A stretch of 64,000 bases of DNA from Schmidtea nova (Eukaryota). The position numbers were made by a program, and so were the translations under genes. Location of the stretch: NCBI GenBank assembly GCA_044892505.1, contig CM097883.1:77562001-77626000 (forward strand), given 5' to 3'. Positions 13,762-64,000 of this stretch are shown here, in pieces. The notes below the pieces were generated by a model, which ran no database searches, was not told the DNA's origin, and worked only from the letters and a program-made list of their open reading frames with translations. Every line of letters starts with the position of its first letter. The first letter of the stretch is position 1.

Positions 13762-15140
13762 CCTAACAACCAAAAAAAATTTGATCTAGTCATAATTATG
13801 AAAATTATTGACTTTACTTAAAAATTACAAAACAAAATTATATAAATAATTTAACAGAAATGCAACTATAACGCGTAGAGACATAAAAAGGACAAAAGAA
13901 ACACCAAGAAAAATTCATAAAAAACAAAAAATAAAAATAATTTAATATTTTTTAAAAAATTAAATTATAAAATCTTACACCAATAAAAGTAAAAAGTAAA
14001 AAAATCAAATCAAAAATTTTTTTTTATTAGGTTTATCATTTATTAATTAAAAAACTCGCAAATTAAATTTATTCTAAATATCATTAAATTATATTCAAAA
14101 ATTTCGAATAACTTTAAGGACAAATAAAAATTATTTTAATTAATCAATAAAATTAAAAAAATTGTTTATCGATCAAATTTGAACAAAAGATATTTAAAAA
14201 TAATAACAAATAAATTAAAATTCAATAAATTAAAATTCAATAAATTAAAATTGACAAATTAGCTTTCCCCAATAAATAACTCTTCCTGAAATAATACCCT
14301 CTGAGAATTTATGTAACAAAATTGAATATAAAATAGTATCTGATAAGATACAATTTTAAAAATATAAGAGTTTGTAGAAAATATAAAATATTATCAAAAA
14401 TAATAAGTTAAGTAAAATAGCAATGTTTTGATGTAATTGTAATGTGGTATATGATTGTCCTGGTATTTATGCTGTGTTACGTAATACAGTATAATTGTTG
14501 TATATAATTGTTGTATATGCTGTTAATGATGTATATTTTTATAATGATCATTTTTGTTATTGTTAATATCGTTATTATCATTATTGTTGTTTTAGTTATG
14601 GCAGCGTACAGGAATCCCCCCAATCAATTGTGCGCATGTAGGATAAATTATATTAAATATTAAATTATAATTTTAATTAGAAATTTGAATTTGGCTTGCT
14701 ATAACAAATTGCTATAATATGCCAAATGACAAATAAAAGAAATCGATATTAAAAAATTACGAAATATTGTTGGAGACAATTATTGTATAAATATCATTTT
14801 TTAGATCCAGTGGTCTTACTTTTCCGTGTACTGGATTTCCGTTTGTGATTGTTGCGTGTTCAGTTGTTTTTTCTGAATCGTCGTTGAATTGGATTGGTTC
14901 CGTTCATTCTTTGAATCGTTCCAGAATTTTGTTGATTTCTGTTGTAATTTTGTCCAGGTTAAGTTTGTTTTTGTTTTTGTCGTAACGACGCCAATGTCCA
15001 TCTTTGGTTTTTATCCACAGCTCAAGTTTGCTGTCGTATTGTTGCATTAGTATTTTCTATTATTTGTTTGTTTTTACAATCTACTAGGAGGTTGTAATTT
15101 GTTAGGAAGTCTGCTTCTATTATTGCTTGTTGGATCTCAG

Positions 15141-16508: not shown

Positions 16509-17458
16509 TGGGTGTTTGTCAAGTATTTGGGTCTGTTTGATTTGATACCATTTGATTTGTTTTGTTGTTGTTTCCTTTGTTGTTTATTAGTGTAAAAAAT
16601 GAGATTGAATGAAGGATATAGCCTACTGTGTTCGGCTAAAAGTATCGTTAATCCTTATACCTCTATAATAGGTATTCTAAAGGCGTTAACGTTTGAAAAA
16701 ATTCGGCGAATGCGTATTTTTTGTGATTTGTTGTTTTTCTTCTGACACCACTGTTATGTTTGTTTAAACTAGCTAAGTTATTTGTCGTTTTTCGTGCTAT
16801 ATAAAAGGGAATTATTGAAGAGCCCGAGAGAGTCTTCCAAAAAAACAAATCGTGTGGAGACACTCGGGGTGTGTGCTTATATAATGTTGGGTTCTACAAC
16901 AATTCAAAATCTGAAAACGAACAACAAAATTTAAATAATAAACTATATTTTTTACAAAAATCGTATTTAGCAAAAATCAAAATGCTAAAACCACGAAAAG
17001 TAACTTGCGATATCTTCTTTATAGTTAATTTGGTCGAAGAGTTCTGAATAAGTTCTGAAAGTTTTTCTACGTTGAAATTTGGAGGATACAAATGGGATAA
17101 TAAATGGAATTTATACAATACAATTTGAGTGGAGATCTTTTAATCAACTCAAGGATTTTCTCTGGGATATAAATGGGATAATAAATGTAAATTATACAAC
17201 AATTGTCTCCAACAATATTTCGTAATTTTTTAATATCGATTTCTTTTATTTGTCATTTGGCTTACTATAGCAACTTGCTATAGCAAGCCAAATTCAAATT
17301 TCTAATTAAAATTATAATTAAATATTTAATATAATTTTTCCTACATGCGCACAATTGATTGGGGGGATTCCTGTACGCTGCCATAATTAAAACAACAATA
17401 AAGATAATAACGATATTAACAATAATAAAAATGACCATTATAAAAATGTACAGCATGA

Positions 17459-17499
<41 letters not shown>

Positions 17500-29905: not shown

Positions 29906-31084
29906 TCAATGATCATAGTTAGGTGTCCTTTTACATAATACGATTGTTATTATTAGAAACACTATGGATAATATGAAAAATGCTGTTATCATAAGATAGA
30001 GTAAGTATTCACAGATGATTAATGTTTGGTTCGTTTCTTTTAAAACTAGCTTGCTCATTTGAGTTCGATTAAATTTATTTCGATTCAGGGGTGGGCCCGT
30101 GGTTGCTACTATCATCTGTGTTTGATGTGTGGCTGTTAGGATCAACTCTGGCCTTTTGATCAGTTTTGTTTCTACCAAAACTGTCTGCCAACGATATGGT
30201 TTGTCCATCCACCGCTGGTATTTGATTTTTATCAGGTAATTATCTCCTACATTAGAAGTATTAAATAAAAAGTAACTTTTACCCACATCCAACAAAACGA
30301 TAATTCTTTGATTCTCACTAATAATTACTCTTTCATTGATCATTGATTTTCTGTATATTACTATCGCTTCATACTGCACTTTGAAAATCACCATATTCGA
30401 TACATTTCTTAGGTAAATACTCTGCTTTTCGGTTTTAAACAATGCCCATCTATTGCTCATTATTGTCCCGTTATCGTATAGCATATTTTCATAATAGTTT
30501 GTTAATATGGTATAATTGGCATTCATTTTTAGGTTATAATATCGAGAATACGATTTCCGTGTATTTAATATATCAACAAAGTTTTGAAATATCACTTGTG
30601 CTTTCACCCGTTCACTTGCTATCCAATACACATTTACTCCATTTAATACCGGCTCTATTTCGACTGTATGTCGTAATTCTTTTGTTTGTATTATGACTCG
30701 AATTTGACTATCAAACTTTACCGACGAATTTGTCTCATTTTGTTTTATAAACCACGGATACTTGAAGTTCGCCTTTAATTCTTGTGCCACATACATATTT
30801 CTATCGTAATTAAGAATACTGACCGGCGTGAATGGATCTAAGAGGTTGTTAATTTCTATCTGTTCCGATACCTCACAATGATAGATCCAGACAATATTCG
30901 TATACGTAGAGTATATATTGATCTTTTCCCATAAGGGTATTTTTGTCACTGCATACGGTAAATCGACCTTCCCACCCTTAACACTTGTCAGTGTTAACAG
31001 AGCAATCATTATAAACAACATTTTTGTAATGTAACTGATTGGGACTGGGTTTTTGGTAAATTTTTGTTGAACTATGGCATCCAC
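29906..31084 (-). CDS. 392-aa predicted type I membrane glycoprotein downstream of integrase
   Basis: Signal-like MLFIMIALLTLTSVKG, beta-rich ectodomain with several NxS/T sequons, C-terminal TM YLLYLMITAFFILSIVFLIITIVLC and short tail. Overlaps the integrase tail in the -1 frame. Confidence 0.8.
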   Translation of the reverse strand: MDAIVQQKFTKNPVPISYITKMLFIMIALLTLTSVKGGKVDLPYAVTKIPLWEKINIYSTYTNIVWIYHCEVSEQIEINNLLDPFTPVSILNYDRNMYVAQELKANFKYPWFIKQNETNSSVKFDSQIRVIIQTKELRHTVEIEPVLNGVNVYWIASERVKAQVIFQNFVDILNTRKSYSRYYNLKMNANYTILTNYYENMLYDNGTIMSNRWALFKTEKQSIYLRNVSNMVIFKVQYEAIVIYRKSMINERVIISENQRIIVLLDVGKSYFLFNTSNVGDNYLIKIKYQRWMDKPYRWQTVLVETKLIKRPELILTATHQTQMIVATTGPPLNRNKFNRTQMSKLVLKETNQTLIICEYLLYLMITAFFILSIVFLIITIVLCKRTPNYDH

Positions 31085-31575
31085 TTTTTCTTGGTTTGGT
31101 TTGGTTGAAGTGGATATCTTGTTTCATCGTCTTCTGGCATTAATTTGCATCGATTTGCATGAACTATTATAGGATTAGCTTTTTTACTCCTGAATGGTAG
31201 TAGTTTCAAATTTGTTTCAGTTGTGTCACATACTTTATATGGCCCTTTAAACGGTCTCTGTAATTTTGGTGACATTCCTTTGAGCGGTTCAGGTCTATTG
31301 AGATATACCAAGTCTCCAATTTTGATTCCATGTGGATGTGCTTTTTTATCATAGGCTTCTTTATACTTTTCTTGATTGTGTTTTACCGTTAAACCAGCTT
31401 TTGCCCACACAGACTGCACTCTTTCTTGCATTAATGCTTTATAGTCTGGTATTTCCATATATTGTGTTACCGGCAATTGGAAGTTTAAATCTATCGGCAT
31501 ATTATTTCTTCTTAAATACATCAAATAAAAAGGTGTCTTATTGGATTTATTGCATTTCGGTAAGCAAACAAGCAA
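31072..31575 (-). pseudogene. Frameshifted integrase C-terminus (GPY/F region)
   Basis: KTPFYLMYLR...GDLVYL...PKLQRPFKGPYKV; continues the pol frame that is lost near 31550. Confidence 0.9.
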
Positions 31576-37988: not shown

Positions 37989-39929
37989 TTATTTTTGATC
38001 AATTTCTGAATTCATTATATAATCAAGGCATTTATTAATTTCATCTTCATCTCCGACATATAGCATATCTCGCAGATCCTGTAATTTTTTCTCCCAACTT
38101 TTATCAGCTAAATTTGAATAATTATTGACATTTAAAATTTTTACCTCGTTTTTATATCCAGGAATTAGACCATAATCGACCAAGAATTCCTCATCCGCTA
38201 ATTGACCAATTTGACGTTGTATAAATTTTATTTGTACTTCATTTCCTTGGTATTTTGACATAATAAGCTTTCTCAAATCTTTTATCTGCCCATCTGGTTT
38301 AATAGAAAAGTGAAATTTTACGTCATCTCCATCGGTGGTTTCTACAAAAATATCAGGCAGACCTTTTGTCAATCTCAAAGCTTTTCCAAATATTTTCATC
38401 AGTTTGGCAATTTCATCATCTTGAGATTTATTGTAGAACTTTGAACATAAATTTAAAATATTTTTCAACTTTCTTTGGCTGAGTTGCATTTGAGATAGTT
38501 CGCTAATCCACTCTTTCAATTTTGGATTATTTGTTTCCATCCTCGTATACCATCTTTCTATTTTATTTATCAATAATATAGCTTTTTCGTTTGACAAGTC
38601 GTTTTTCGCTTTATCTCCAAGACTTTCTTTTTCATCGGTTTCTTTTTCGTACACCATACAAGAATCAATTTCCTCATCTGATTCGAATTTTGACATTAGT
38701 TTGTTTAATTTCTGTCTCATTTCCCGGAATTCATTTTCCATTTTCTCCTTAAACTCGTCCTTTTGAGCATAGGCTACATTAGCGTTGGATGATTCATCCT
38801 GAAATCTAATAGATCTCTTCAGTATTGGTCTGCTGAATCTTTCTGCATTCTTTGGGCATGATCGAGCCATGTGGCCATAACCTTTGCATGAATGACATTG
38901 AATTTGTCCATTTGTATTTACTTTATCTCGTTGCGGTGACGGAGATGTTGATGGTGATCGATTTTTAGAAAAGCAATTTCTGCTAATGTGACTCGTTTTC
39001 CCACATCGATAACATTCCAAGTTGCTATTGTTTGGTTTGTTTTCCACAAATATTCTTTTAGGACTACTATTTCTGCCATATTTGAACCAACATTGGTTCG
39101 AATAATGTCCGATTTTTTTGCAGTGCTCGCATACGACACTATTTGATCTCTCGGTTAGCTGGCTACCAAAAGCTGCTTTGTTAGTTTCTATCTTAGTACC
39201 TAATCTGGGAGAACTGATTGTTTGGATTGGTCTCTTGGATTCCCATTGATTTCTGACAGGTGTTATCGACCTTTCTCTCCTTTCAACATTTGCTGCGAAT
39301 GCTTCAGATTTTCTGGTGCTTTTTAAATTCAGTTCAATTTTCATTGCTTTCTTCACAAGTTCATCAAAATTTGCAAAATCTACATAACACAATGCCTTCT
39401 TTATTTCGGGATGAGCTCCAGTTATGAATTGATCTTGAAGCAGTTCTTTAACCTGCTTCACCATATCAACTTGCTCAGGCTTTGCTTCAAAGGCTTTATC
39501 TGCTAAAGTATTTAGATGATATGCAAACTCACTTACCGATTCCGTTGGATTTTGAACTCTGTTGTAAAATCTCTGTCGCATTATCCTTTTGATATCTCCA
39601 CCTACCAATTTCGTTGCCATTGCATCCTTCAATTTGGCCCAATCATTTCCAACTGTCCTTTTGTCCACTTGTTGCCAAGCTTCTCTTGCGGCTCCCTTTA
39701 AGTATAACGGAAATCTTTGTACCATTATTGCTTGTGACCATCCATAAGCTGCGGCATACATATAATAATCTCCCATGAAGTCTGCAAACTCAACCGGATC
39801 TCCACCATACTGATTCACCGGTAATTTTTGACAGCTTGCAAAATCAATCATCTCTCTATTGAGAGGCATAACAGCATTATCATTTGCCATTTGTGTTTGT
39901 TTCATACTTCTGAGGTTATATCGACTCAC
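37989..39929 (-). CDS. gag: Gag (capsid + 3 CCHC zinc knuckles) with a C-terminal ubiquitin-like extension
   Basis: Retrotransposon capsid motifs (FPLYLKGAAREAW, QNPTESVSEFA); CEHCKKIGHYSNQC, CYRCGKTSHISRNC, CHSCKGYGHMARSC; IFVETTDG...QLADEEFLVDYGL. The track start is GTG; first ATG at 39905. Confidence 0.93.
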   Translation of the reverse strand: MSRYNLRSMKQTQMANDNAVMPLNREMIDFASCQKLPVNQYGGDPVEFADFMGDYYMYAAAYGWSQAIMVQRFPLYLKGAAREAWQQVDKRTVGNDWAKLKDAMATKLVGGDIKRIMRQRFYNRVQNPTESVSEFAYHLNTLADKAFEAKPEQVDMVKQVKELLQDQFITGAHPEIKKALCYVDFANFDELVKKAMKIELNLKSTRKSEAFAANVERRERSITPVRNQWESKRPIQTISSPRLGTKIETNKAAFGSQLTERSNSVVCEHCKKIGHYSNQCWFKYGRNSSPKRIFVENKPNNSNLECYRCGKTSHISRNCFSKNRSPSTSPSPQRDKVNTNGQIQCHSCKGYGHMARSCPKNAERFSRPILKRSIRFQDESSNANVAYAQKDEFKEKMENEFREMRQKLNKLMSKFESDEEIDSCMVYEKETDEKESLGDKAKNDLSNEKAILLINKIERWYTRMETNNPKLKEWISELSQMQLSQRKLKNILNLCSKFYNKSQDDEIAKLMKIFGKALRLTKGLPDIFVETTDGDDVKFHFSIKPDGQIKDLRKLIMSKYQGNEVQIKFIQRQIGQLADEEFLVDYGLIPGYKNEVKILNVNNYSNLADKSWEKKLQDLRDMLYVGDEDEINKCLDYIMNSEIDQK

Positions 39930-49790: not shown

Positions 49791-50485
49791 TAAATTCATT
49801 TAATTTAATTTTGACTCTGGCTAAGATGGAGTACCCAAAGGATACTGTCTTAGTCGGTAGCGGAATAAAAAATATAAAATTACCGATTTAATTTAAAATT
49901 TTCTCAATTCTTTAAAATTTGTTAAGTCTCAAATTTGTTTTAAGTTTTATGATTTTTAAGTTTGTCTTATATACCCCCTTTTTAATTTTTTGAGATCCCT
50001 TTTTCTACCCCATTACTTTGTTAGTATTAACCAATCTAATCGATTTCCCAATTTTCCCATGTCGAAGAGTGTAGATTCACATGAAACATTGATAAAAGAA
50101 AATAATACACTATTGTTGAGGTCCAAGATTTTTAGATCTCAACGTACACTGGTGTAGACTATAGTATATAAAAATAAGATCAAGTTATTTGAAAAATTTA
50201 TTCAATAACAAAATTTACCGAAATCAAAAATCAAAAGTTATAAATCACACTTTCAAATCTGTATAACTGTTTTACAAAGTTTATTTAAAAGATATTTTTG
50301 CGTGTCCTACTGTGTGCTTGTTATTTACGTGAATGTATTATGTTTATTTTAGCTATAACAATTTCGTGTTGGACGTTTTTGTGCTGTCCGTAAATTTTGA
50401 GTTCTCGCAGGATTACCCTTTGAGAAAGTTTATGTCGCAAAATTTTGATTGAAATTGAATTTCAAAAAATTGTGGGCATTGTACT

Positions 50486-53400
50486 TATCATAATATTGTC
50501 AATGATAATTAACAATAATCGTGTTAATTATCGTTTTAATATTTTGTTTAAATAACTTATCATTTTATAATAAATATAATTTGAATATTAAGAATTCTTA
50601 TGCGTGCATTATAACAATGGCGTCACGATTGGAAGAATTGAATCTAGATGACAACATCAATGTCGAAATATGGTTAACCGCTTTTGGTGCGATGAGTCGA
50701 GCCAATAAGTGGGTCGACAGTGACAAATCAAGACAAATCATGGACAACTTCCTATCTGTATGTGGACTGAAGGCACTCACGAAAATCCAACATATGGCTT
50801 CTCCCAAATTGCTAGAGGAGATGACGTTCAGCGAGATCAAAGCCATGCTATTGAACCACACACAGCCGAAAAGCAAAGTTGTAATAGCTGAGAGAGCAAG
50901 ATTTTATCAGCTAAGACAGGAACCGAAAGAGAAATTAGCAGATTTCTATATCAGACTCAAGAAAGCTGCTATATATTGTGACTTCAAGAAATTGAAGGAA
51001 TCAACTGACCCCAACGAGGATATGCTCCTCATGGCATTGATTACGGGAATATATGACATCAATGCTAAGGAAAAGATTTTGCTGCAAATGAGTGCTGGGA
51101 TTCCAACATGCAACGAGATCCTCGCACAAATGCAAACATATGAGGAGATATCGACGTTCATATCCCTCCAGCATGGAACAAAACCTACAATTACCTCTAC
51201 GACCGATGAAATCAATTTCATTAAAAAGAAGAGATCAAACCTTGGAACATCAAGGAAATTCGAAGAGAAAGGAAATCAAAGGTGTCATTACTGTGATCGA
51301 ATACACGAGCCAAAGAAATCCCCGGCATATGGAAAGAAGTGTACGAATTGCGACAGAATGAATCATTTTGCGAAAGCCTGCAGATCTTCGACAAAGTCGA
51401 TACACGGAACATTCGCAGATCAGACATCGTCAGCCGATGAAAGTGATAGGCAGTACATCAACCAGTTCACTTCAAATAATATTACAAGTGACATTAACCC
51501 TGTCCTCTTAGGTACAACGATAGTGAAAATGCAAAAAGATACCGGCGCATCTGTATCAATCATATCATCCAAGATGTGGGAAGACATGGGAAGACCGAAG
51601 CTTGACAAGACAAGAAGAAAGCTTGAAGCCTACGATGGGCATATCATGCAATGCCACGGCTCGTTTCTGACAACTGTGGAATGGGAAAAGCAAGTGCTTC
51701 CGGTAACAATCACAGTCATTCAATCTATGAAGGACTTCGGACTAATAGGAATGGATATACTGCAGCAGACACGACACGGAATCTTACAGTGTCAAATCAC
51801 GAAGACAACAGAATCTCAAGTGTTACCAGCAATCAAAGGTATAAAAGCTTCTATGGATTTAATCGACGATGCGAAGCCCATGTGCTGTAAGGCTAGGCCA
51901 ATACCATTAGCTTTAGAAAACAAGGTCAACGATGAACTAATAAGGTTACAGCGATTAGGAGTAATCTCTCCGTGCACCAAACCGGTACTGAATTCTTCGC
52001 CCGTGGTTTGGGTAAAAAAGAGCAATGGCGACCTCAGATTATGCGTTGACTTCAAAGTGCATATCAATAAAAAGATAAAGACCGATGCATACCCCATTCC
52101 GAACGTCGAAACAATTTTCTCAAAACTAAAGAATGCCAACAAATTTGCAAAGCTCGATCTCACATCGGCATATTGGCAGATAGAATTAGACGATAAAGCA
52201 AAGGAGATATCGTGCATAAATACGACAAAAGGTATGTTTATTGTAAATAGATTACAGATGGGTATGAAGAACGCCTCTGCAATCTTTCAAAGGACAATGG
52301 AGCAAATACTTAAAGATATCAAAGGAATACTAATCTACCAAGACGACGTACCGATTTATGCCGAGAATGAAGAATCACTAAGGAATAGACTGCAAACGGT
52401 AAAATCGCGCCTAAAAGAGAAAAAAGTTACAATCAACCAAGCAAAGACTATTGAACTTACCAATAGTGTTTCCTTCTTGGGTTTCGAAATATCGTCAAAG
52501 GGTATCACACCTGATAAAAGTCTCGTCAGCAAAATAAACAATATAAAAGAACCAACATGCAAGGAGGAAGTAGAATCTTTCATCGGGTTAATTAATTACT
52601 TTGGTAGGTTAATTCCAAATTTTTCAGACAAAACAAGAGTAATCAATGAATTGAGAAAAAAAGGTGTAAAGTTCGATTGGAACAAGGAATGCTCGAACCA
52701 GTTCAAAGCACTAAAACAAGAAATTTCAACGTATCCAGTTGTGCAACCTTACAGCCTCGAAAAGGAAGCCACATTGACGACTGATGCATCTAAACACGCC
52801 ATAGCAGCTGTCCTAACCCAAGATGGCCATCCTGTGATCTACATTTCCAGAACACTTTCGGCTGCCGAAAAAAATTACTCTAACATAGAGAGAGAGGCTT
52901 TAGCCATAGTATGGTCTATATCTAGACTACAACACTTCTTATTAGGGAGGAAATTCAAGGTGAATACAGACCACCAACCACTCCAATCCCTATTCGGTAG
53001 CGAACCACCGATTCCAAGGCGAACATCCAATCGAATTTCAAGGTGGGCCATGCTGTTGATGCAGTACGATTATGAAATATACTATGTAATGGGAAAGCAG
53101 ATCCCGCATGCAGATGCACTATCAAGACTAAAATTCATCGATGAAAAGGAAGCAAACGAGGAAATCAAAACCAAGAACACATTGAGTGTTTTCACGGTCC
53201 AGTTTAGCGAGGGCTTATTAAATGCCTCAGAGGTCAGATTGGAAACATCGCTAAACGAGTTGGCCAGAGATATCATGCGTCGCATCAAGAAAGGCAATTG
53301 GTCGAAGTGCTCACAATCAGAAATGCCATTCAAGAAAATATCAGACCGACTAACAATTGAAGATGGACTGATTTACCACGGGTCACGTCTATTCATTCCA

Positions 53401-54270
53401 CCAAAACTAAGGAAGAAATGCATTGACATAGCACACAATGAGACACATTCTGGTCTACAATCAACATTTTACCGGCTAAAGGCATCATCTTGGTGGCCTG
53501 GAATCCACGGAGACATCGACAACTTCATTAGGTCATGTGCAATTTGCAAGAAACTACATCCTCGCCCAGAGAAGAGCATTCACAAATGGCCAGAAGCGAA
53601 ACCATTCCAAAGAGTACATATGGATTGGGCCCACATCAAAGAGGTGGGCGACGTGCTCATTATTGTAGACGCTGGTTCGGGATGGATTGAAGCCTTCAAG
53701 ACATCCGATAAAACGAGTAAGTCAGTGATCACGTGCTTACGAACTGTTTTCACCAGGTTTGGAGTCCCGGAATGCATCGTCTCGGATAATGCCCAGGAAT
53801 TCACTTCACATGAGCTAAACGCGTGGATCGACAGCCTAGAGCTCCAATAATGTCTAAATTTCAACAAGGCCAGGACATCTGGTACAAAGCCAGTGAGGAT
53901 GTGGAACCAAAAGAGGGCGAATTTATCATGACTAAGGGCAACAACACTTCATACATCACCATCGAGAGTCAGAACGACAATGTGACGTTGGTTAGCAATA
54001 ACCAAATCTCAGACCGCCGGCAGATTCAGGAAGTCAAAGACGCACAACTTACGCAAGAAAAAGTACCAGCCGAATCCGACATTAGACGCAGTGGGAGACA
54101 TCGATCGAAACATAGATGTGGGTGCTGCTGATGAAAGGATATCATAATATTGTCAATGATAATTAACAATAATCGTGTTAATTATCGTTTTAATATTTTG
54201 TTTAAATAACTTATCATTTTATAATAAATATAATTTGAATATTAAGAATTCTTATGCGTGCATTATAACA
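50486..54270 (+). mobile_element. Nested short-LTR Ty3/Gypsy (Mag-like) element with a deleted integrase
   Basis: Identical 131-bp LTRs at 50486-50616 and 54140-54270; 5-bp TSD GTACT; PBS-like TGGCGTCACGA at 50618; purine tract GAAAGGA before the 3' LTR. Confidence 0.95.
50617..53850 (+). CDS. pol: Gag-Pol (Gag, CCHC, PR, RT, RH, truncated INT)
   Basis: MASRLEEL start; CTNCDRMNHFAKAC; PR KDTGAS; RT YQDD; RH TDAS; INT H..HSG..C..C, VHMDWA, VSDNA, then loss of the catalytic-E region. The 3' remnant is ORF 53823-54131. Confidence 0.93.
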   Translation: MASRLEELNLDDNINVEIWLTAFGAMSRANKWVDSDKSRQIMDNFLSVCGLKALTKIQHMASPKLLEEMTFSEIKAMLLNHTQPKSKVVIAERARFYQLRQEPKEKLADFYIRLKKAAIYCDFKKLKESTDPNEDMLLMALITGIYDINAKEKILLQMSAGIPTCNEILAQMQTYEEISTFISLQHGTKPTITSTTDEINFIKKKRSNLGTSRKFEEKGNQRCHYCDRIHEPKKSPAYGKKCTNCDRMNHFAKACRSSTKSIHGTFADQTSSADESDRQYINQFTSNNITSDINPVLLGTTIVKMQKDTGASVSIISSKMWEDMGRPKLDKTRRKLEAYDGHIMQCHGSFLTTVEWEKQVLPVTITVIQSMKDFGLIGMDILQQTRHGILQCQITKTTESQVLPAIKGIKASMDLIDDAKPMCCKARPIPLALENKVNDELIRLQRLGVISPCTKPVLNSSPVVWVKKSNGDLRLCVDFKVHINKKIKTDAYPIPNVETIFSKLKNANKFAKLDLTSAYWQIELDDKAKEISCINTTKGMFIVNRLQMGMKNASAIFQRTMEQILKDIKGILIYQDDVPIYAENEESLRNRLQTVKSRLKEKKVTINQAKTIELTNSVSFLGFEISSKGITPDKSLVSKINNIKEPTCKEEVESFIGLINYFGRLIPNFSDKTRVINELRKKGVKFDWNKECSNQFKALKQEISTYPVVQPYSLEKEATLTTDASKHAIAAVLTQDGHPVIYISRTLSAAEKNYSNIEREALAIVWSISRLQHFLLGRKFKVNTDHQPLQSLFGSEPPIPRRTSNRISRWAMLLMQYDYEIYYVMGKQIPHADALSRLKFIDEKEANEEIKTKNTLSVFTVQFSEGLLNASEVRLETSLNELARDIMRRIKKGNWSKCSQSEMPFKKISDRLTIEDGLIYHGSRLFIPPKLRKKCIDIAHNETHSGLQSTFYRLKASSWWPGIHGDIDNFIRSCAICKKLHPRPEKSIHKWPEAKPFQRVHMDWAHIKEVGDVLIIVDAGSGWIEAFKTSDKTSKSVITCLRTVFTRFGVPECIVSDNAQEFTSHELNAWIDSLELQ

Positions 54271-55034
54271 GTACTGATATCTACATCAGTTTATATACTA
54301 AAATTTTCTACTCTAATTGTAAATAATTATATTTAAATATCATTTTTATCTTTTAAATTTCCGATGATAATTACATTTGAAATGTCAATGATTAATATTT
54401 CCCTATTTGAAATGTCCTAATTTAAATATCATTTTTATCTTTTTAATTTCCGATGATAATTACATTTGAAATGTCAATGATTAATATTTCCCTATTTGAA
54501 ATGTCCTAATTTGCCCTTTAATATTTTCCATATTGTCATACAAAATTTAAAAATAAAATAATAATATAAATTCTTTCCATATTGCCATTTTTATACAAAC
54601 CAATATGTAAAATAAAAAAAAATAAAATAATAATATACAGAATAAAATAATAGCAAGGTAAAAATACAGTGGATAAAACAATAAATATACAGTGAATCAA
54701 ATCATAAATTTGTAATTTCATATACATAGTTGTTTGGGGATTCGTTGTCTTTGATTGTTATGATTACAAATAAGATAGGCTCACAGTATGTTAAAATCAC
54801 ATTGATTTGATTGATCTTTGAGATGTTTGAGGATGGGAACTGTATTATTGTGTCATTGATCTTTGTGGGGTTCTGACTGGTGTTGAATCAGTTGAAAAGT
54901 CATAGATTGTTAATCAATATTCACCAAAGATGATAATGTCGAGAATTAAATGCCCAATGGATATTGTTGTCTTGATCTACCGTATTGAGATTGATTGATA
55001 TTTGCTTCTTCTTGAACGGGCTCTGCATAAATAT

Positions 55035-57008
55035 TTACTCTGTACCTGCCGCCCCCACACTATAGTTTTCGGATAAGAGGAATGTATTGATGGGCTTACC
55101 TTCATCATCCAACATTCCTCCCCGGGCCGTCAAAGTAATGTCCTCATTACCCTTGTCACACAATATTAAATCAATTCTTTTCTCTTTTATTTGAATTGTT
55201 GTTTTTCGAAATCCATTTTTTATCGCAAGGTTTATCGTCTCCTCGTGCTCAATTTGTCTTCCAAAATGAGTGCAGAGATCTTTTTCTGAGACATATTTCT
55301 TGTCTTTGTCTATTATGAAATCTGATTCTTCTGGTTCTGTCCAGTCGGCTAACATTTCAACGTTTGGTTCGGGTCCGATATCCTCTTCCATTATGTTGTA
55401 TTTATTACTTGTTGATGGTTCTTCATTATCTTCTTCCATTTTGATGTCGTTGCTGCTGGTTGAAGGTTCTTCTATGTTCTCATCTGCTGAGAAATATTCA
55501 TCATCTATATCACATTCGTCCATTCTTTCATATAGAATATTTTGAATTTTGGGTTCTGCTTTGATTCCTCTAGTTGGAGCGATAAGTGGTATTTCTTCTT
55601 TTATGATCATTAGTTCATCGTCGTCACTGTTCATGAGCTCTTCCATGAATGACTTTTTTGGTTTGTTATGATTGGTTTTTGTTGATTCCCCATGGGACGG
55701 CTCCATGCCTTCTCCATCTTCATATTCACTTTCTATCTCACCTTCTGCTTCGCTCTCTGTTTCGTTTTCGAATATTGTTTCTAGTTGTTCTTCTCCATTT
55801 GCTTGTTTCCTTTTAAGAAGTGTTGCGGAATCCCATTTGACAACTTCTTCCCATTTATTTTCTGTGATATCGTAGATAACTTTTAATAGCATTGTGGTGA
55901 TCTTTGTTGAGAATGGTTCTGGTTGTCTCAATATATCATTTAACTTTTTATCTTTATGCCAACTTTTATGGTAATTGATTACCTGGTAAGCCAAATTTGA
56001 TATTTTTATTTTTGGTGGGGCCACGTTTTTTACAAAAGAACACATGAATCGATCCTGTGCCATTTCTCTTATGCCCATAATGTTGTCCAGATCTATCGTC
56101 AATAGTTTTAACTTATCTATGATGTTGAATCCAACTATGATCTTTCCATAGAGAATGTTTCGAATTTCATTTAAGGCTTTATATTCGTCTTCATTTCCAA
56201 TTATGTTTTCTTTTGTAGCTTTAGTTTTTTCCGTGTAGAATTTTTCTACTTTCGTTCTTGGGGTGATGAATTTGTTATACAGAATTGCTCCTTTTCTGCT
56301 TCTGATACAAATTTCCACTGGTCTGAGATTTTTGTTTATATCTTGAACTACTTTTATACCCACCATTACAGTTAATGAATGCCTTTCTTCTGTCGTTAAT
56401 TCTTGATTCGTGAATGATATCTTCTGGTTGATCATATCTTCATTTATTTGTAGGATTGAATGTATTGGGTTTAATTTTATGAACGGATTTGGGATTGTCG
56501 GGATATATAGCACTTCGATTGCTATCACACATGGTAGGTTATTCATCTGCACTGTCAGCTCATTGAAATCGTTTGACATACTTCTGTCTTTTCTTATTAA
56601 CTTGATAACTGCTGAACAGTTGCTTGTGACAATTAACGGGATTTTATTTTGACATATTGCAACTTCTGTTTTTGTCATGTGGAATATTAATCTGTGAGGG
56701 ATTCTCTTGTTTTCGGCAACTTCTTTGTCGACGTTTTGGTATTTGTCGAAGGTTCCAATAAGCTCTTTGAGTTTCACTCTTCGGGCCTCATTGAATTTTA
56801 TCAGATGCATTTCCCGTTCTTCTATTTCGACTTTCATGTCGTTTGGGATACATATTTGATTTGGGAAACTGCGAATTGTAATTGGGGTTCCATCAGTACA
56901 TATCTTGTTCTGTAGATTTTTGTAAAAACTCATGTTGAGTTTGTTTATAAAACAAGTGTATTTCTGGTAGGTTCTTGATGGGTTGAAATGAGGTTGATTT
57001 TGATTCAT
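55035..57008 (-). CDS. 657-aa accessory protein containing a catalytically inactive DEDDh exonuclease-like domain and an acidic tail
   Basis: Open frame. The domain at about 55850-56380 aligns with the 48-49 kb exonuclease (GAILYNKFITP, GKIIVGFN, GIREMA), but the D-x-E, D and H-x4-D positions are replaced. MNQNQ at 57008 is the likely start. Confidence 0.75.
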   Translation of the reverse strand: MNQNQPHFNPSRTYQKYTCFINKLNMSFYKNLQNKICTDGTPITIRSFPNQICIPNDMKVEIEEREMHLIKFNEARRVKLKELIGTFDKYQNVDKEVAENKRIPHRLIFHMTKTEVAICQNKIPLIVTSNCSAVIKLIRKDRSMSNDFNELTVQMNNLPCVIAIEVLYIPTIPNPFIKLNPIHSILQINEDMINQKISFTNQELTTEERHSLTVMVGIKVVQDINKNLRPVEICIRSRKGAILYNKFITPRTKVEKFYTEKTKATKENIIGNEDEYKALNEIRNILYGKIIVGFNIIDKLKLLTIDLDNIMGIREMAQDRFMCSFVKNVAPPKIKISNLAYQVINYHKSWHKDKKLNDILRQPEPFSTKITTMLLKVIYDITENKWEEVVKWDSATLLKRKQANGEEQLETIFENETESEAEGEIESEYEDGEGMEPSHGESTKTNHNKPKKSFMEELMNSDDDELMIIKEEIPLIAPTRGIKAEPKIQNILYERMDECDIDDEYFSADENIEEPSTSSNDIKMEEDNEEPSTSNKYNIMEEDIGPEPNVEMLADWTEPEESDFIIDKDKKYVSEKDLCTHFGRQIEHEETINLAIKNGFRKTTIQIKEKRIDLILCDKGNEDITLTARGGMLDDEGKPINTFLLSENYSVGAAGTE

Positions 57009-57471: not shown

Positions 57472-57960
57472 TTATACCAATGTGGATTTTGTATATTCAC
57501 CTGGTATATATTTGCCCAAATGGAAATACCCTGGTACATTTCTGACCAGTCGGCTCCGATACCGCTGCCTTTTCCGTTTGTACTTTTTATAAATATGTAC
57601 GCTAGTTATTAAAGCTAAAACTGCTAATGCTATTATTGATGTTGTGATGACATAATAAGGCCAATGTGGCTTTTTATCCTCTTTACGAAATGCTTGTAAT
57701 TCCTCTAAGTTATGTATCACTATTGGTCTTCCTTGCCTTATTTTGATAGGTTCTTGTTTTTGTTTTTTGGCATTATATTGTTTTTGGAATTTGGCTATTC
57801 CAGTGCTTGTTGGTATTTCGTTTGTATGTGGTGTGGTATTTAGTATATTATCTGATGTCGTTGTTGTGCTTTTTATTCTATCGAGTGTTTTTGTTATGTT
57901 ATGATTTTTTGTTATATTCTTGGGTAATTGTTCTGTTTTTATTTTTTTTGCATCTCCATG
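57472..57960 (-). pseudogene. Frameshifted stalk + TM + basic tail of the post-integrase membrane protein
   Basis: Thr-rich stalk in a shifted frame (KSTTTTSDNILNTTPHT), then PHWPYYVITTSIIALAVLALITSVHIY-KKYKRKRQR. Confidence 0.7.
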
Positions 57961-60805
57961 TTGTTGTATCTGTGTTTCTCTGTATGCAGATTCTGTATAT
58001 TGTATTAGGTGTTAGTTTTGAGAAATTAATATAGCTTCCTCTTTCGATTTCGTTGGTTGTTCTGTCGTCTTTTCCTTTTATCATCTTTGGATTTTTCCCA
58101 TTCGTTGTTTGCATGTATATATCAATTACTCCTCTATTTATGATAAATACTCTAACTTCGTTTGTTGCTATTTTTATTAATATTTTGTCAAATTCTATTG
58201 TTTCGGTTGAGCCAACGAATGTTATGATTGTTAAGAAGATAGCTGATATTATTATTTTGTTATGAGATCTTAGATTATACTTGTGAGGTTTATCTATCGT
58301 GACCTCGGCTTCCGCCAACTTGCATCTGTTGACATGTACTACTATTGGATCCTCGTTTTTATGTTTTTGTAAGTGTAAATTCTCATTTATTACTTTTACT
58401 ACCTCATATGGACCTTTATATGGTCTTGCTAGTTTTGTTGTCTTTCCCTTTCCTACTTGTGGTGACATAAGTCTAACCTTATCACCTACTTTAAAGTTGT
58501 GTGGTTTACTATTTTTGTCGTAATCGGCTTTGTACTGTTCTTGTCTATATTTGACTTTTAGATTGGCTACTTTATACACTTCTTGCAGTTTTTCCTGCAT
58601 TAGTGTGACATAATCTGGTGCATCTAAATATTGTGATACTCGAGGTTCAAATATTGTATCTATTGGTGTTGCTGGTTCTCTTAAAAACATTAAATAATAC
58701 GGTGAATACCCTGTTGTTTCGTTTGGAGTGATATTATGAATGTATGTGCATTGACTTATGTATTCGTCCCAATCATTTTGATTTTTTCCTACAAAAACAG
58801 CTAGTCTGCTTAGTAATGTACCATTAAATCTTTCTACTAGTCCATCAGTTTGAGGGTGATACGCTGTTGTGTTAATCTTTTGCATATTAAAAATATTAGC
58901 TACTCTTTTTATTAATTCGCTAGTAAAATTTGTTCCTTTATCTGTTAATCTTTTGGGTGTGCCTATCTTGAAAATAATTTTTTCTATAAGCAATTTAGCA
59001 ACTGTTTCTGCTGTTTCGTCTTTTGTTGGAAATGCTTCTGCCCATCTAGTAAAATAATCACTAAATACTAGTATATGTTTATTCCCATTAATTGTAGTAG
59101 GTAATTTACATAGAAAATCCATTGCACATAGTTCCATTGGTGATGTCGTTGCTGGAATGGGATGTAACGGCGCTTTTGTTTTTGTACCTGTATTTTTTCT
59201 TGTTGCACATATTGTACACGCGTTACACCATCTCTTAACATCTTTCTTTAATTCTTCCCAGTAATATTTTTGTAATAATCTACTTGCTGTCTTTCTAAAT
59301 GATAAGTGACCTCCTAATGCTCCATCGTGATATTGTAGTAGGAGTATTTGTCTTAATTTCTGAGGTACTACTATTAGTTGCTTACCATTGAAATCTTCTA
59401 TTACTACTAATTTCTTTGATATTTTATACTTTGAATTGTTTTCTTTTCTGATTTCATTCCTTATTTTACTGATCTCTGGGTCTTTCATCTGTTCCTCATA
59501 TATATCGATTGGCTTTTCTGCTACTAGTGCAAATATTTCAAGTGCTCCTAATTCTGGTATTCTTGATAGTGCATCTGCGTTTTTATTTATTCTACCTGGT
59601 TTATATATAATTTTTAGGTGCATGTCTTGTATTTTCATTGCCCATTTAAGTAATCTACTTGATGTATCTTTATGTTTCCATAAGCCTTCTAATGGTTTAT
59701 GGTCAGTTCTTATTATCACTTCAGTCCCATATATGTATGGTTTGAATTGTTTTAGGGCGAATACTATTGCGTAACATTCTTTTTCTATTGTTGAATACCT
59801 CAGCTGTGCTCCTTTTAATGTTTTACTGGCATATGCTATTACGTAATCTTTCCCTTTTTCTTCTTCTTGGCCTAAGACTGCTCCTACGGCTTTCCCGCTG
59901 GCATCCGTCATTACTATAAACTGTTTTTCGAAATCTGGGTATCTTAACACTGGTGCTGTTATCAATCTTTCTTTTAGTTTATTGAATGCTTCTTGGTGTT
60001 CCTTTGTCCACTTCTTTTGTATCTTGTTAACTTTGCTGTTAATTTCTTGTACTATTAACACATTTTTGCATTCTCCTTTTGTTCTAATTCCCTTTGTTAG
60101 TTCTATTATCGGTGATGCTATCTTTGCATAATCTTGTATGAATTTACGATAGTACCCTCTTAGACTTAAAAACCCTTGTACTTGTTGTACTGTTTTTGGT
60201 ATTGGGAATTTCTTTACAACTTCTAATTTTTCTGGATTTGGTTTTATCCCTTCTACTGTAACTATATGCCCTAGAAATAACGCCGAAGGTTCTGCCCATT
60301 TACACTTAGTTGGTTTAATTTTAATTTTTGCTTTTCTTAGTCTCTCGAGTACATTTGTTATATCTTTTAAGTGTTCCTCAAATGTTTTTGATGATATTAG
60401 TATATCATCCATGTAAACTGCGCAATGTTGTACATTTACTAATATTGTGTTCATTAGGCGCTGAAATGTAGCTGGTGCGTTAGTTAACCCGAAAGGTAAT
60501 CGTGTATACTCATATAAACCATCCTCGATAACAAATGCTGTTTTTTCCGCATCCCCTTCCTCCATTTGAATTTGCATATATCCCTTATTTGCGTCAATAA
60601 CTGAAAAATACTTAGCATCCCTAAATTTATCGTATTGTTCTTGTGCTTTTGGGAATGGGTATGAATCTTTTACTGTTACATCATTTAATTTGCGATAGTC
60701 AATGCACATTCTTATTTCTCCGTCTTTCTTTTTAACGGGTACAATGGGTGATGCCCACTGTGAAAAACTCTGTTTTATTACACCTGCATCGTTTAGTTCT
60801 TTGAT
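57899..60805 (-). CDS. pol: RT-RNaseH-integrase fused in frame to a signal peptide + FN3-like ectodomain
   Basis: YMDD, TDASG, MDFLCKLP / TDKG / VERFN, GPYEV, then IIISAIFLTIITFVGS and SKLTPNTIYRICI. Joined to the upstream ORF across a single in-frame TAA at 60806-60808. Confidence 0.93.
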   Translation of the reverse strand: MKELNDAGVIKQSFSQWASPIVPVKKKDGEIRMCIDYRKLNDVTVKDSYPFPKAQEQYDKFRDAKYFSVIDANKGYMQIQMEEGDAEKTAFVIEDGLYEYTRLPFGLTNAPATFQRLMNTILVNVQHCAVYMDDILISSKTFEEHLKDITNVLERLRKAKIKIKPTKCKWAEPSALFLGHIVTVEGIKPNPEKLEVVKKFPIPKTVQQVQGFLSLRGYYRKFIQDYAKIASPIIELTKGIRTKGECKNVLIVQEINSKVNKIQKKWTKEHQEAFNKLKERLITAPVLRYPDFEKQFIVMTDASGKAVGAVLGQEEEKGKDYVIAYASKTLKGAQLRYSTIEKECYAIVFALKQFKPYIYGTEVIIRTDHKPLEGLWKHKDTSSRLLKWAMKIQDMHLKIIYKPGRINKNADALSRIPELGALEIFALVAEKPIDIYEEQMKDPEISKIRNEIRKENNSKYKISKKLVVIEDFNGKQLIVVPQKLRQILLLQYHDGALGGHLSFRKTASRLLQKYYWEELKKDVKRWCNACTICATRKNTGTKTKAPLHPIPATTSPMELCAMDFLCKLPTTINGNKHILVFSDYFTRWAEAFPTKDETAETVAKLLIEKIIFKIGTPKRLTDKGTNFTSELIKRVANIFNMQKINTTAYHPQTDGLVERFNGTLLSRLAVFVGKNQNDWDEYISQCTYIHNITPNETTGYSPYYLMFLREPATPIDTIFEPRVSQYLDAPDYVTLMQEKLQEVYKVANLKVKYRQEQYKADYDKNSKPHNFKVGDKVRLMSPQVGKGKTTKLARPYKGPYEVVKVINENLHLQKHKNEDPIVVHVNRCKLAEAEVTIDKPHKYNLRSHNKIIISAIFLTIITFVGSTETIEFDKILIKIATNEVRVFIINRGVIDIYMQTTNGKNPKMIKGKDDRTTNEIERGSYINFSKLTPNTIYRICIQRNTDTTTWRCKKNKNRTITQEYNKKS

Positions 60806-63800
60806 TTATCGTTTTATTTCCTCTCTTAACTTGTATGGTACGCTGTATGGTCTTTGTTTTATTGGTCTCGCATTACCTGTATCTATTACATGTTTGATTA
60901 TATCGGTATCCCCTAGATCAAATTCGTGTTTTGCAAAAACATCACTATATTTATCTATCAATGTTTGTAGTTGTGCTTGTTGTGTTATTGTTAAGTATTC
61001 ATTATTAATTTTTACTTTGTCATATGATTTTATATTATTTATCTTACTAGGTTCGACTACTCCCTTGCCATTATTATTCATCACGCTTATCTCACTGACT
61101 TCGTACGTTTTTTCTAATTCACCTTTGAATAATTTTCCCAATTTCGTACCTTTGTGTATTTTAACATTACTTTTTTCATAATTTGCTATTCTCAATGGTA
61201 TTATTCCCTTTCTCGGAATTACGCATTCATTGGTTAGCATTATATTCTGATTTTGTATAATTGCCGTTTCTGGCTCAAAAATAAAAGTGTCCTCACTTTT
61301 GATGTTAACTCTTAAGGGAATTATATGATCGCATTCATATTCTAATTCAAATGATTCTAATGCAACAACTTCTGTGAACTTGGATTTATGTTTAATTGCT
61401 TTTCTCTTTATCGTATTATCTGTTAAATCTATAATGCAATTTTCTAACTTGTTGAGTATATCGATTCCCAATATACATATGCTATTACATTCTTGCACCA
61501 CTTTAAATATGTGGTTTATTACCTGTTCTGGTGTTTCGACTATTAGTTCTATGTCTCCCTTTAGTGGAATACGATGTGCTGATAACGATACTACTTTATC
61601 CGTTGTGCTCATAATATTTCTTTTTTGATCATCTGTCAGTTGATCTTCTCTAATTAAGGATGTTGCTGCTCCTGTATCTACTAATGCATTTATGATTATA
61701 TTGTTTATAATTATTCTAAGTCTTGGTCTTGCTTCGTTTGCTGCATCTAATCGTTCCATTGTTTCGACTTCTAAGCTATAACAACCATATATCTTTTTAG
61801 GTTCACAATGACAATTCTTGTTTTCTCTAGGAATTTTTATTTCTATATTTTCTTGTAGCTCTTTTAGTTGTTCTCTTTGGTTTTCAAATAGTCCTTGTTG
61901 TGGTACATTTCCTTCATGTGATATATGCGCTTTAATTATTTCCTCATCGTTTTCATCATCTACCAATAATTGCCTTTCTTCATTCCTTTGGACTTTTATT
62001 AAACGTATTTCCTTGTCGTGTTTCGCCGTAATAAGATATTTAGCTATAAATGGGCACAAACATGCTAATAATTTATATGAATTTCCAAATACTTGTTTTA
62101 GCTGTTTCAGTGATACTAGAGAAGAACATATCATTTTTAGTAATGCAACCGTATAATATATACCTAAGATTGTAGAAAACATGTTTCCAAGGACTGCAAA
62201 GTATCCCCATATGCTATATAGTACTTTATATGCTACTTTTTTGAAGTATTCTTTTGATAATAACACATCAAAGTTGTAATTTCCTCCGTAACTTCCTTCG
62301 ATAACTCTGTTAACCATTATTGAAAGTACTCTTTCTTTTTCGTTTGGAAATAGCATGTGTTTTCTTGCACTTTCTATAGCTTCTCTCGTATATATACCAT
62401 TACTGTCCATATCGTTGATTTCTTTAAACTCTAATCTTTTTTCTAGCTCTATGAGTTCTAATTTGAGTGGTTTCATTGCCTCTTTTCTATCTGACATAGA
62501 TATCCACATTTCGTCATTTATTTTGTATAATGGGTCTAATAGGTTAGTGCATTTTTCTATTTTTCTCGGTATATATGTTTTTTCTGTTAATATTCTAGTA
62601 ATTGGTTGAAGGTATACCCTTTCTCCTTTATATATTACCGGTAATTCATTAGTGCACTGATTATTTGTTGCTAATGATACACTAACAGGTTTACATTGAA
62701 ATGTCTGTATCACTTCTCCTACTATCCTTGCAAATGTTCCTTCTTCTGAGAAGATTATTGGTGCCATTAAATCTTGGTTTGTTACCGCCACTGCCATTTT
62801 TGTCCTCAATATTTCTCTGTTGAGTTTGCAATCGCTCATAATTGTTGATTGATATACTTTATCTAGTTGTACTAGTTGGTTATGATAGAAAAAATCGATT
62901 TTATTGTTGAAGTATGATGCAAGTTTGACGTCGAATTTATTTACTTTTTGTTTTGCATCTTTGACTTCTTCTTTGCTTATGTATATCCCTTCATAATTAG
63001 TTTGTATTATTTCCTTACCACATTTTACACTTTTCCTTTTACTAACAAACCTCATTGCTTCGTTTTCAGATTCTGACATATATATTGTTGGTGTATCTTT
63101 TTCTTGTACAATTGTTGTTTTCCTTTTTTGATCTCTCACCCTTTTTGAGTCTACTTCTGTGAACTGTTTTCCTTTGATTTCCCTAAATTTTAATGATTTT
63201 AATTTTGTTAACTGACAATCATATTTATCTATTTTGTATATTAGCATTGATTCTCCTGTATCGCAATAAGATTCTTCTAATGTACAAAATTTGTATATCA
63301 TCATTTTCTTTGAGCTGCTGTCGAATGATGCTTTGAACTTTCTCAGTTCTACCATGTAGTGTCTCCTTACTACAACATTACTCAGTTTTTCGCCCCATAT
63401 TGTATATTCTCCTCCTTCACAATATCCTCCTTTTGATGTCCATCCCACGACATTTATATCTTGTCTCATTTTTGCTCCTATCCTTGCTTCTAATTCTATT
63501 CCTTTATGACCGCTATATTTTACTTTCTTTGTTTTAAATGCATCTTCACACTCTATTGGCGACAATATTACTGCTTCGGGTGTCCACGTAGGTTTTAACA
63601 CTGTTCTTGCCCCAACATGACATATATATGCTTCCTCCTGATACTTTACTATGCACTCTTTAGCCTCTGTATGAATAAAGTCTGATTCTTGATAAACATG
63701 GAATATTTGAGGCTCTGACATGATTAATTTAGTTGGATTTGCTTCAGGGCAATTTTCAACATCCAACAGTGAGTATTTTTGTCCCCACTTTGGATTTTGA

Positions 63801-64000
63801 CAATCATATGCTACCATTGCATTGCCCCCCTTGATTAAATCTAATAACAAAGTGATTATGACTATTACTATGGAGGTTATCGATTTACTCTCTGTCTTTG
63901 GTTTTACTGTTGCTTTCTTTATTAATTGTTTTATTACATCATCTGTATCACTCTCTTTATTCGTCGTATCTTTATCATATAATACTTTCCATCCTCCTTT
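60806..64000 (-). CDS. BH2-like motif + signal/TM + chuvirus-G-like glycoprotein + TM + protease + RT start (open at window edge)
   Basis: The frame is open from 64000: KGGWKVLY...SIVIVIITLLLDLIKGGNA-MVAYDC..YSLLDVENC...CTNELPV...WGYFAVLG (TM)...ALVDTGA (PR)...IKQRPY. Confidence 0.92.
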   Translation of the reverse strand, partial: KGGWKVLYDKDTTNKESDTDDVIKQLIKKATVKPKTESKSITSIVIVIITLLLDLIKGGNAMVAYDCQNPKWGQKYSLLDVENCPEANPTKLIMSEPQIFHVYQESDFIHTEAKECIVKYQEEAYICHVGARTVLKPTWTPEAVILSPIECEDAFKTKKVKYSGHKGIELEARIGAKMRQDINVVGWTSKGGYCEGGEYTIWGEKLSNVVVRRHYMVELRKFKASFDSSSKKMMIYKFCTLEESYCDTGESMLIYKIDKYDCQLTKLKSLKFREIKGKQFTEVDSKRVRDQKRKTTIVQEKDTPTIYMSESENEAMRFVSKRKSVKCGKEIIQTNYEGIYISKEEVKDAKQKVNKFDVKLASYFNNKIDFFYHNQLVQLDKVYQSTIMSDCKLNREILRTKMAVAVTNQDLMAPIIFSEEGTFARIVGEVIQTFQCKPVSVSLATNNQCTNELPVIYKGERVYLQPITRILTEKTYIPRKIEKCTNLLDPLYKINDEMWISMSDRKEAMKPLKLELIELEKRLEFKEINDMDSNGIYTREAIESARKHMLFPNEKERVLSIMVNRVIEGSYGGNYNFDVLLSKEYFKKVAYKVLYSIWGYFAVLGNMFSTILGIYYTVALLKMICSSLVSLKQLKQVFGNSYKLLACLCPFIAKYLITAKHDKEIRLIKVQRNEERQLLVDDENDEEIIKAHISHEGNVPQQGLFENQREQLKELQENIEIKIPRENKNCHCEPKKIYGCYSLEVETMERLDAANEARPRLRIIINNIIINALVDTGAATSLIREDQLTDDQKRNIMSTTDKVVSLSAHRIPLKGDIELIVETPEQVINHIFKVVQECNSICILGIDILNKLENCIIDLTDNTIKRKAIKHKSKFTEVVALESFELEYECDHIIPLRVNIKSEDTFIFEPETAIIQNQNIMLTNECVIPRKGIIPLRIANYEKSNVKIHKGTKLGKLFKGELEKTYEVSEISVMNNNGKGVVEPSKINNIKSYDKVKINNEYLTITQQAQLQTLIDKYSDVFAKHEFDLGDTDIIKHVIDTGNARPIKQRPYSVPYKLREEIKR

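Follow-up and report, generated by a model that had tools for sequence, protein, structure and literature searches.

The stretch analysed here, 64,000 nucleotides of Schmidtea nova DNA (GenBank assembly GCA_044892505.1, contig CM097883.1, positions 77,562,001 to 77,626,000; hereafter the window), carries on its minus strand a young long terminal repeat (LTR) element of ~13 kb, element 2, whose 5' end lies beyond the window. The frame at 60805-57899 holds its reverse transcriptase (RT), RNase H, and integrase, the last of which (58265..59368; H2C2, core, and SH3-like C-terminal domain, recognised by Pfam, sequence, and hydropathy) ends in YNLRS. Past this point the frame runs on: HKYNLRSHNK (YNLRS at 58279-58265) is followed by IIISAIFLTIITFVGS (58255-58208) with no stop between, the latter being part of a second internal signal peptide (58208..58264) with a basic n-region and an h-region of ~15 residues, for which the -3/-1 rule predicts cleavage after VGS. 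Behind it, still on the minus strand, lie an FN3-type domain of ~90 aa (57930..58207; LTPNTIY at 58015-57995, the final two predicted strands carrying a Cys pair), a Thr/Lys/Asn-rich stalk of variable length (57682..57930), a transmembrane (TM) helix (57598..57657; found by hydropathy and modelled as a helix with a pLDDT of ~90), and a cytosolic tail (57472..57597) which, judged from the sequence of copies and relatives, has a basic stop-transfer stretch, tyrosines, a C-terminal STLV, and the stop codon. We refer to this extension as the slot protein.

The preliminary description of this DNA had the integrase running into a signal peptide without a stop, and this holds for the window frame as well as for all 29 other top copies fetched, each of which has a single open frame from the integrase C-terminal domain through the signal, FN3-like domain, stalk, TM, and tail to the same stop. 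Since the 30 copies fetched (the window copy and these 29) were chosen as the best-scoring of 479 candidates, the sample is biased to young copies; slot sequences were laid out for 27 of the 29 open copies. Among 18 older copies (domain 82-88% identical), seven were open through the TM and tail, five were broken inside the slot, and six remained unparsed. A stop between integrase and signal peptide, looked for across the copies, was found in none of the 29 top copies and in 0 of the 12 older ones that could be parsed. When 150 copies of the domain were scored, 28 lay in frames of >3,000 aa without a stop in the domain, and four had a stop inside it.

The window copy itself is interrupted by a frameshift in an A-tract at 57940..57950, located by comparison with other copies and public contigs, after which the TM (57657-57598), the basic stretch (57588-57550), and the end (57472) are all in the next frame. 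Two frameshifts in A-rich tracts had been proposed; only one is needed and found, so the second was dropped, and the first is private to the window copy. The contigs of four public runs (at most three samples, from one study) differ from the window copy at the A-tract, and a programmed frameshift at this place was ruled out because the other copies are open there. Between young and older subfamilies the ratio of nonsynonymous to synonymous divergence (dN/dS) was 0.22 for the signal, 0.31 for FN3, 0.89 for the near-neutral stalk, 0.13 for the TM, and 0.36 for the tail; these values come from 28 non-independent pairs, and a row designated IN_up, only a third aligned, was left out. Given the open frames in the copies and dN/dS values below 1, the extension after the integrase is a maintained coding part of the polyprotein.

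The same arrangement recurs in element 1 of the window, in which the slot (29906..31123, minus strand) holds a signal peptide, three predicted beta-sandwich domains, a stalk, and a TM, in frame with the integrase in sibling copies. All 14 siblings run from the integrase into the signal peptide, and 13 of the 14 to the protein end; as their frames are open, the 392-aa protein of element 1 is a polyprotein extension and not a separate gene. The slot of element 2 had been likened to this protein, and the likeness stands as regards the shared slot and the FN3/Ig-like models, but not as regards a separate protein. A separate gene, or a stop after the integrase, was ruled out by the open frames in young, older, and element 1 copies.

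We then compared the slot across families, as the preliminary description had suggested, and found a signal-ectodomain-TM cassette in frame after the integrase in 16 of the 16 lineages with a readable integrase end. Eleven of these belong to this genome (element 2, L138, L142, element 1, L085, L045, L047, L118, L123, L126, and a giant element) and five come from elsewhere (P0002, P0003, P0005, L114, and L116); P0004, L115, and L117, in which the integrase end is unreadable, stand outside the 16, and nine loci of one 20-locus set, which were broken or interrupted ahead of the slot or near its start, added nothing. All 13 lineages listed for that region carry a Y/H-x-L/I-R word behind the integrase. 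What lies between integrase and cassette differs: a protease-like domain in P0002 and P0003, ankyrin-like repeats in the giant element. The number of ectodomain repeats differs likewise, with one in the element 2 clade, three in the element 1 clade, and four in the giant element, and in L123 ~150 residues of the three-domain ectodomain have been deleted in a family that is still multi-copy and open.

Several of these polyproteins have peculiarities of their own. In that of the giant Burro-like element (L160:9200-L161:1139), ankyrin-like repeats are followed by a signal peptide and four Cys-bearing FN3-like repeats, the first of which has an extra hydrophobic segment behind it, and the chain finishes with a TM and a tail; the next open reading frame (ORF) encodes a TRAF zinc finger and MATH. 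P0002 and P0003 each have three retropepsin-like stretches, one of them between the integrase and signal 2. In L114, an additional signal-to-TM segment lies between protease and RT (residues 1585-1769) and residues 3161-3177, within the slot, form another hydrophobic segment, which suggests more luminal excursions; the first domain of L114 had no match in this genome. The full gag-env-pol-FN3-like polyprotein of P0005 is filed under a Flavobacteriaceae metagenome bin and is likely animal DNA. The integrase-ending word, as RYNLRS, also occurs just before the first Met of the element 1 gag frame (window ~39910-39925, minus strand).

An intact natural sibling copy of element 2 is one frame of 3,073 aa with, in order, gag with a CCHC knuckle, a Bcl-2-like domain, a Monjiviricetes-type fusogen (glycoprotein B [gB]/class III), protease, RT, RNase H, integrase, and the slot protein. 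Four segments of this frame are strongly hydrophobic, namely signal 1, the env TM, signal 2, and TM 2 in that order; two weaker hydropathy peaks fall inside the protease. From this order we place the fusogen in the lumen, the pol enzymes in the cytosol, the FN3 domain and stalk again in the lumen, and the tail in the cytosol; the earlier proposal that the polyprotein crosses the membrane a second time agrees with these four segments, which flank two predicted luminal parts. In young copies no Met adjoins signal 2, so that, barring a spliced RNA that provides a start, it would have to be recognised as an internal signal.

The slot had also been said to hold a mucin-like, Thr-rich stalk, a TM, and a basic tail. 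The TM and tail stand, while the stalk is moderately mucin-like (16 S/T per 83 residues in the sibling copy L094, all within the first 55) and is not so in general: that of L142 is short and basic, and the Thr-rich stalk is confined to the element 2 family. The terminal STLV of the tail is, we presume, of the class I PDZ-binding type. Tails ending in [ST]-x-[VLI] are found in 8 of the 16 lineages, against 2.9% per position in the polyproteins; as six of these eight cases sit in one clade, the PDZ-like end counts for three of seven deep lineages. Among element 2 subfamilies the -1 residue of the tail varies, with the Thr and Val constant. The tails of the two sister families, L138 and L142, read STLC at the end in place of STLV and keep the -2 Thr.

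The domain of element 2 very probably has an FN3-type fold, as several weak but agreeing tests on models and profiles indicate. Pfam fn3 was the sole match or one of two matches in five of eight versions of the domain, with E values of 0.046-0.12 and scores of 13-14.4 bits, which is below the Pfam cut-off of 25. In a Foldseek search of the PDB with the domain model, 41 of the 42 listed rows were FN3-type (best E value, 9e-3), the labels being taken partly from titles and, for some rows, from the FN3 nature of cytokine receptors. A profile of eight domains from element 2, the two sister families, and the giant element matched 10 PDB sequences at an E value of ≤10, all of which we take to be FN3-bearing proteins; the top match was ELFN2/PPP1R29 (E value, 0.042), with both cysteines aligned. 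Fn3_ELFN was a weak Pfam match in two relatives (E values, 0.11 and 0.075). PDB sequence searches with a single domain or with narrow alignments gave nothing useful, one of them returning LIFR (E value, 5) and an unrelated protein. The L-x-P-x-T-x-Y motif, with the E-F loop Leu and the F-strand Tyr of FN3 domains, appears as LTPNTIY or LAPNTIY in the copies and as LKPDTNY and LQANTIY in the sister families. A conserved Trp in strand B is a feature of FN3 domains; it is absent from the element 2 domain and found in the first two domains of element 1, and its loss makes the former a divergent FN3, so that we call it FN3-type and not a member of Pfam fn3. More narrowly, the fold is predicted from these models to be of the leucine-rich repeat (LRR)-FN3 kind, ELFN-like with a Cys pair. 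For the element 1 ectodomain, the best Foldseek rows were tandem FN3 pairs (E values, 5e-4 and 7.5e-4), and the only leads from the ESM Atlas, at 0.86-0.87, were to FN3/Ig-like clusters; the same atlas gave no usable match for the element 2 domain. The FN3-like domain of the preliminary description is supported by concordant Pfam, Foldseek, and PDB-profile results that all lie below formal cut-offs.

A number of results weigh against this assignment. The FN3 scores of every test were below formal thresholds, three of the eight element 2 domain versions had no Pfam match at all, and Pfam fn3 matched 0 of 16 element-1-type ectodomains. The single-sequence AlphaFold (AF2) model of the element 2 domain, although it has seven assigned strands, has a mean pLDDT of 49.7, which is low confidence. 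With this model, the best VIA matches (Z 7.3, root mean square deviation 3.0, 86 residues aligned) were non-FN3 Ig-like bacterial domains within the common-fold range, FN3 and other Ig-like folds being tied. In element 1, only the third domain was confidently modelled (pLDDT, 70-83), and its two best VIA matches were bacterial sandwiches (Z 8.9), with fibronectin and CD45 at 7.2-7.3. When each family in turn was left out of the profile, only 7 of 13 hand-anchored segments stood out, that of element 2 among them (1 of 500 shuffles), and the test is partly circular because the segments were chosen on the motif. The profile of the giant element gave the element 2 domain 2.8 bits against a shuffled maximum of 6.0, though in the right place; in three whole proteins it likewise landed on the slot with scores within the shuffled range. 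On the separate matter of relatives, word-based homologue searches with the slot protein, a weak method, yielded 0 of 404 and 0 of 1,880 candidates, and scans of viral and prokaryote contigs gave no relative.

The rate of change of the slot protein was determined between element 2, L138, and L142. Their FN3 domains are 30-46% identical, compared with 75-93% for the C-terminal half of the fusogen, 79-94% for RT, 79-82% for integrase, and 74-87% for the tail, so that the description of the ectodomain as fast-evolving is well founded. Between these sister families, synonymous divergence (dS) is no higher in FN3 (1.2-1.3) than elsewhere in the element (~1-2.7, partly saturated), and the domains can be aligned in register, with a dN/dS of ~0.3-0.5. 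Since the domain is alignable in register and its dS is not raised, the sequences point to rapid vertical divergence and not to recent replacement. That the ectodomain had been exchanged, the alternative offered in the preliminary description, is not supported at the depth at which it can be tested, dS being no higher than in pol and the element 1 ectodomain likewise modelling as FN3/Ig-like sandwiches.

The remainder of element 2 is that of a GAG-ENV-POL (Burro-type) Ty3/gypsy element, a class already described. The first internal signal peptide, the gB/class III-type fusogen (Monjiviricetes_fusion), and its TM lie in frame between gag and pol at approximately 62100..63880 on the minus strand (PF24664, E value 7.6e-88, and hydropathy), and in the 3,073-aa sibling frame PF24664 covers residues 942-1587 (E value, 9.9e-87). 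Protease, RT, and RNase H occupy 59624..61735 (minus strand), with a premature stop at 60806-60808 in the window copy, and the Pfam order protease-RT-RNase H-integrase is that of the Ty3/gypsy type. The Bcl-2-like domain ahead of the in-frame env matched PF00452 with an E value of 2.7e-5, below the curated cut-off. The LTRs are >99% identical and have TG...CA ends and a 4-bp target duplication, ATAG; a TGG-starting stretch, as expected of a primer site, follows the 5' LTR. The 3' LTR (50114..55114, minus strand) is in two parts, 55114-54271 and 50488-50114, which are 99.5% and 99.2% identical, respectively, to the 5' LTR; it is split by a nested small gypsy element at 50486-54270 on the plus strand, with identical 131-nt repeats. 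Between the slot protein and this LTR lies ORF2 (55035..56933, minus strand, start uncertain), likely a degenerate DEDD exonuclease-like gene by its appearance. Neither this ORF nor ORF2 of L045 (7324-8772) had a Pfam match, and both look degenerate by eye; the ORF at the same position in L114 (10617-12104) matches RNase_T above the cut-off (E value, 1.4e-5). DEDDy exonuclease ORFs have been reported from rotifer LTR elements (PMC5408684). A seven-codon env motif had 1,087 matches genome-wide, compared with 10 for the reversed control, from which we take envelope-bearing elements to be abundant in this genome. Elsewhere in the window, inverted repeats of 283 nt, 94% complementary and 2.4 kb apart (14521-14803 and 17179-17461), resemble the ends of a DNA transposon.

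What the sequences establish directly is the open frame, its retention across copies and families, the succession of hydrophobic segments, and the rates of divergence. We read the frame of ~3,070 codons as ending in a predicted type I membrane protein which, with a probability of about 0.5, is an attachment or adhesion partner of the gB-type fusogen. The chain would enter the lumen of the endoplasmic reticulum (ER) at signal 1, with the fusogen, and return at the first TM; protease, RT, RNase H, and integrase would be made in the cytosol, and the chain would re-enter the lumen at signal 2 and return at TM 2. Host signal peptidase would cut after VGS and free the membrane protein, and integrase would keep a signal stub until the element protease or an intramembrane peptidase cut close to the Y-x-L-R word, which is conserved. 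The tail, conserved and basic, with tyrosines and often a PDZ-type end, may direct the protein to sites of budding or of contact between cells, and the ectodomain, with one to four repeats, would diverge fast by descent, as expected of a host-facing binding surface. Such a biogenesis would be unusual for a retroelement, as the integrase lies between two membrane anchors and needs release. The slot protein, kept in every lineage examined and changing several times faster than the fusogen, is a concrete candidate for the step at which envelope-bearing Ty3/gypsy elements outside insects choose their target cells. A wider proposal, tentative and on our estimate doubtful, is that flatworm GAG-ENV-POL elements are two-glycoprotein viruses: from one polyprotein that passes the ER membrane four times would come a conserved fusogen of gB type and, separately, an FN3 attachment protein of host origin. 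The ectodomain of the latter, quick to change and variable in its number of repeats, would decide which cells each family enters, an entry layout like that of herpes- and paramyxoviruses and unlike that of known retroviruses and errantiviruses. Three points tell against an attachment role. Baculovirus GP64 and rhabdovirus G, both fusogens of gB type, need no partner for attachment; dN/dS is below 1 at the level of the domain, that is, there is no positive selection; and the fast change fits weak constraint equally as well as the chasing of a receptor.

Instead, the slot protein could imitate a host LRR-FN3 receptor for adhesion or signalling, or serve as its decoy, and so act on the producing cell, where it might dampen defence, block superinfection, or keep cell contacts open. 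We consider this unlikely, the possible effects included. Other host-directed cargo is present in the same polyprotein (the Bcl-2 domain, E value 2.7e-5) and, as ankyrin-like repeats and a TRAF/MATH ORF, in the giant relatives, as also described for Burro elements (PMC6431247); moreover, the tail is more constrained than the ectodomain, and the top-scoring PDB entry is a synaptic adhesion protein of a host. Optional cargo, however, does not behave like the slot protein, which shares a chain with the fusogen and sits at the end of that chain in each of the 16 lineages, and no host donor was identified, no deep donor search having been made. Another reading is that the main role is one of assembly, with signal 2 tethering Pol to the fusogen membrane, the TM and tail organising budding, and FN3 serving as a loosely constrained luminal spacer. 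The tail is indeed 74-87% identical where FN3 is 30-46%, the stalk is near-neutral, repeats vary from one to four, and L123 has lost ~150 ectodomain residues yet is multi-copy and open; but FN3 is under purifying selection in most comparisons (dN/dS, 0.08-0.31), and the ectodomain is present in every lineage examined. We rate a main role in assembly as improbable.

It is still less probable, in our judgement, that the slot is an exchangeable cassette into which different lineages independently captured unrelated FN3/Ig-like genes. The preliminary description had found the slot unalignable with that of element 1, and this holds for sequence, with a probability of 3% and an E value of 0.014 by hhalign and an E value of 0.081 in another comparison, none of them significant; in addition, the L116 ectodomain has no significant link to the others, and the Cys pair of element 2 and the giant elements is absent from the element 1 domains. 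Against this, descent is vertical wherever the domains can be aligned, with dS not raised, the ectodomain types track supported pol clades, and the distant giant elements share the L-x(4)-Y-x-I/L-C...C pattern of element 2. The pol tree has 10 rows, and an env tree with an unreliable L116 start was not relied on. Between lineages that parted as early as those of element 1 and element 2, whose pol sequences are 50% identical, exchange may have taken place.

The element class itself is known. Flatworm gB-type errantiviruses with a GAG-ENV-POL layout have been described (PMC13524379), and element 2 agrees with the Platyhelminthes herpes simplex virus/gB-type errantiviruses in the passages covered of that paper in its gag-env-pol order, gB-type env, and many intact young copies; by eye, its env shares about two-thirds of its residues with that of Smed_errantivirus_3, the closest, and the element 1 env is close to that of Smed_errantivirus_2. 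Judged from the element by itself, a planarian would be the likely host. The words fibronectin, accessory, and exonuclease have 0 occurrences in the main text of that paper, and the passages covered describe no second membrane protein after the integrase. The planarian Burro or GYPSM1 giant gypsy elements likewise have a single polyprotein with a GAG-ENV-POL layout (PMC6431247). In the sections of that report covered, element 2 and Burro have in common gag, a CCHC knuckle, a Bcl-2-like domain, an in-frame env, protease, RT, RNase H, and integrase in one polyprotein. Element 2, however, with ~13 kb and 3,073 aa, is without ankyrin, BIR, or MATH/TRAF, compared with an internal region of up to 25 kb and an ORF near 5,000 aa in Burro; it is Burro-like in layout but not Burro proper. 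The text of the Burro section (PMC6431247), its figure aside, makes no mention of a post-integrase signal peptide, FN3, or TM; two giant Burro-like copies of this genome do end in a TM after the integrase, and the one fully read has a signal peptide and four FN3-like repeats. In the literature searched, Repbase reports, subscription journals, figures, and supplements being outside its scope, we found no description of an FN3-type membrane protein at a polyprotein end. To the known class this analysis adds a proof of read-through at the level of copies, a survey of 16 lineages including giants, and a rate comparison that favours fast descent over exchange.

Among other systems, the sORF2/FAST-like proteins of MDG1-group retrotransposons are, according to their description (PMC11952523), likewise extra transmembrane proteins of LTR retrotransposons, and theirs act at cell contacts; they are short and belong to elements without env, whereas the slot protein has a folded ectodomain, would be cut from a polyprotein, and accompanies a fusogen. 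With host ELFN1/2 the slot protein has in common an FN3 domain with L-x-x-x-T-x-Y-x-x-C, a second Cys on the last strand, and an adjoining stalk and TM, but it is without the LRR domain, and the scores do not prove descent from the LRR-FN3 family, in which we would also place the adhesion proteins FLRT and LRFN. Viruses pair attachment proteins with a fusogen as well, gD and gH-gL with gB in herpesviruses and HN or G with F in paramyxoviruses, and flavi- and alphavirus polyproteins are processed by signalase at internal signal peptides. The likeness of element 2 to these pairs and polyproteins is one of layout only: two surface proteins and internal signal peptides.

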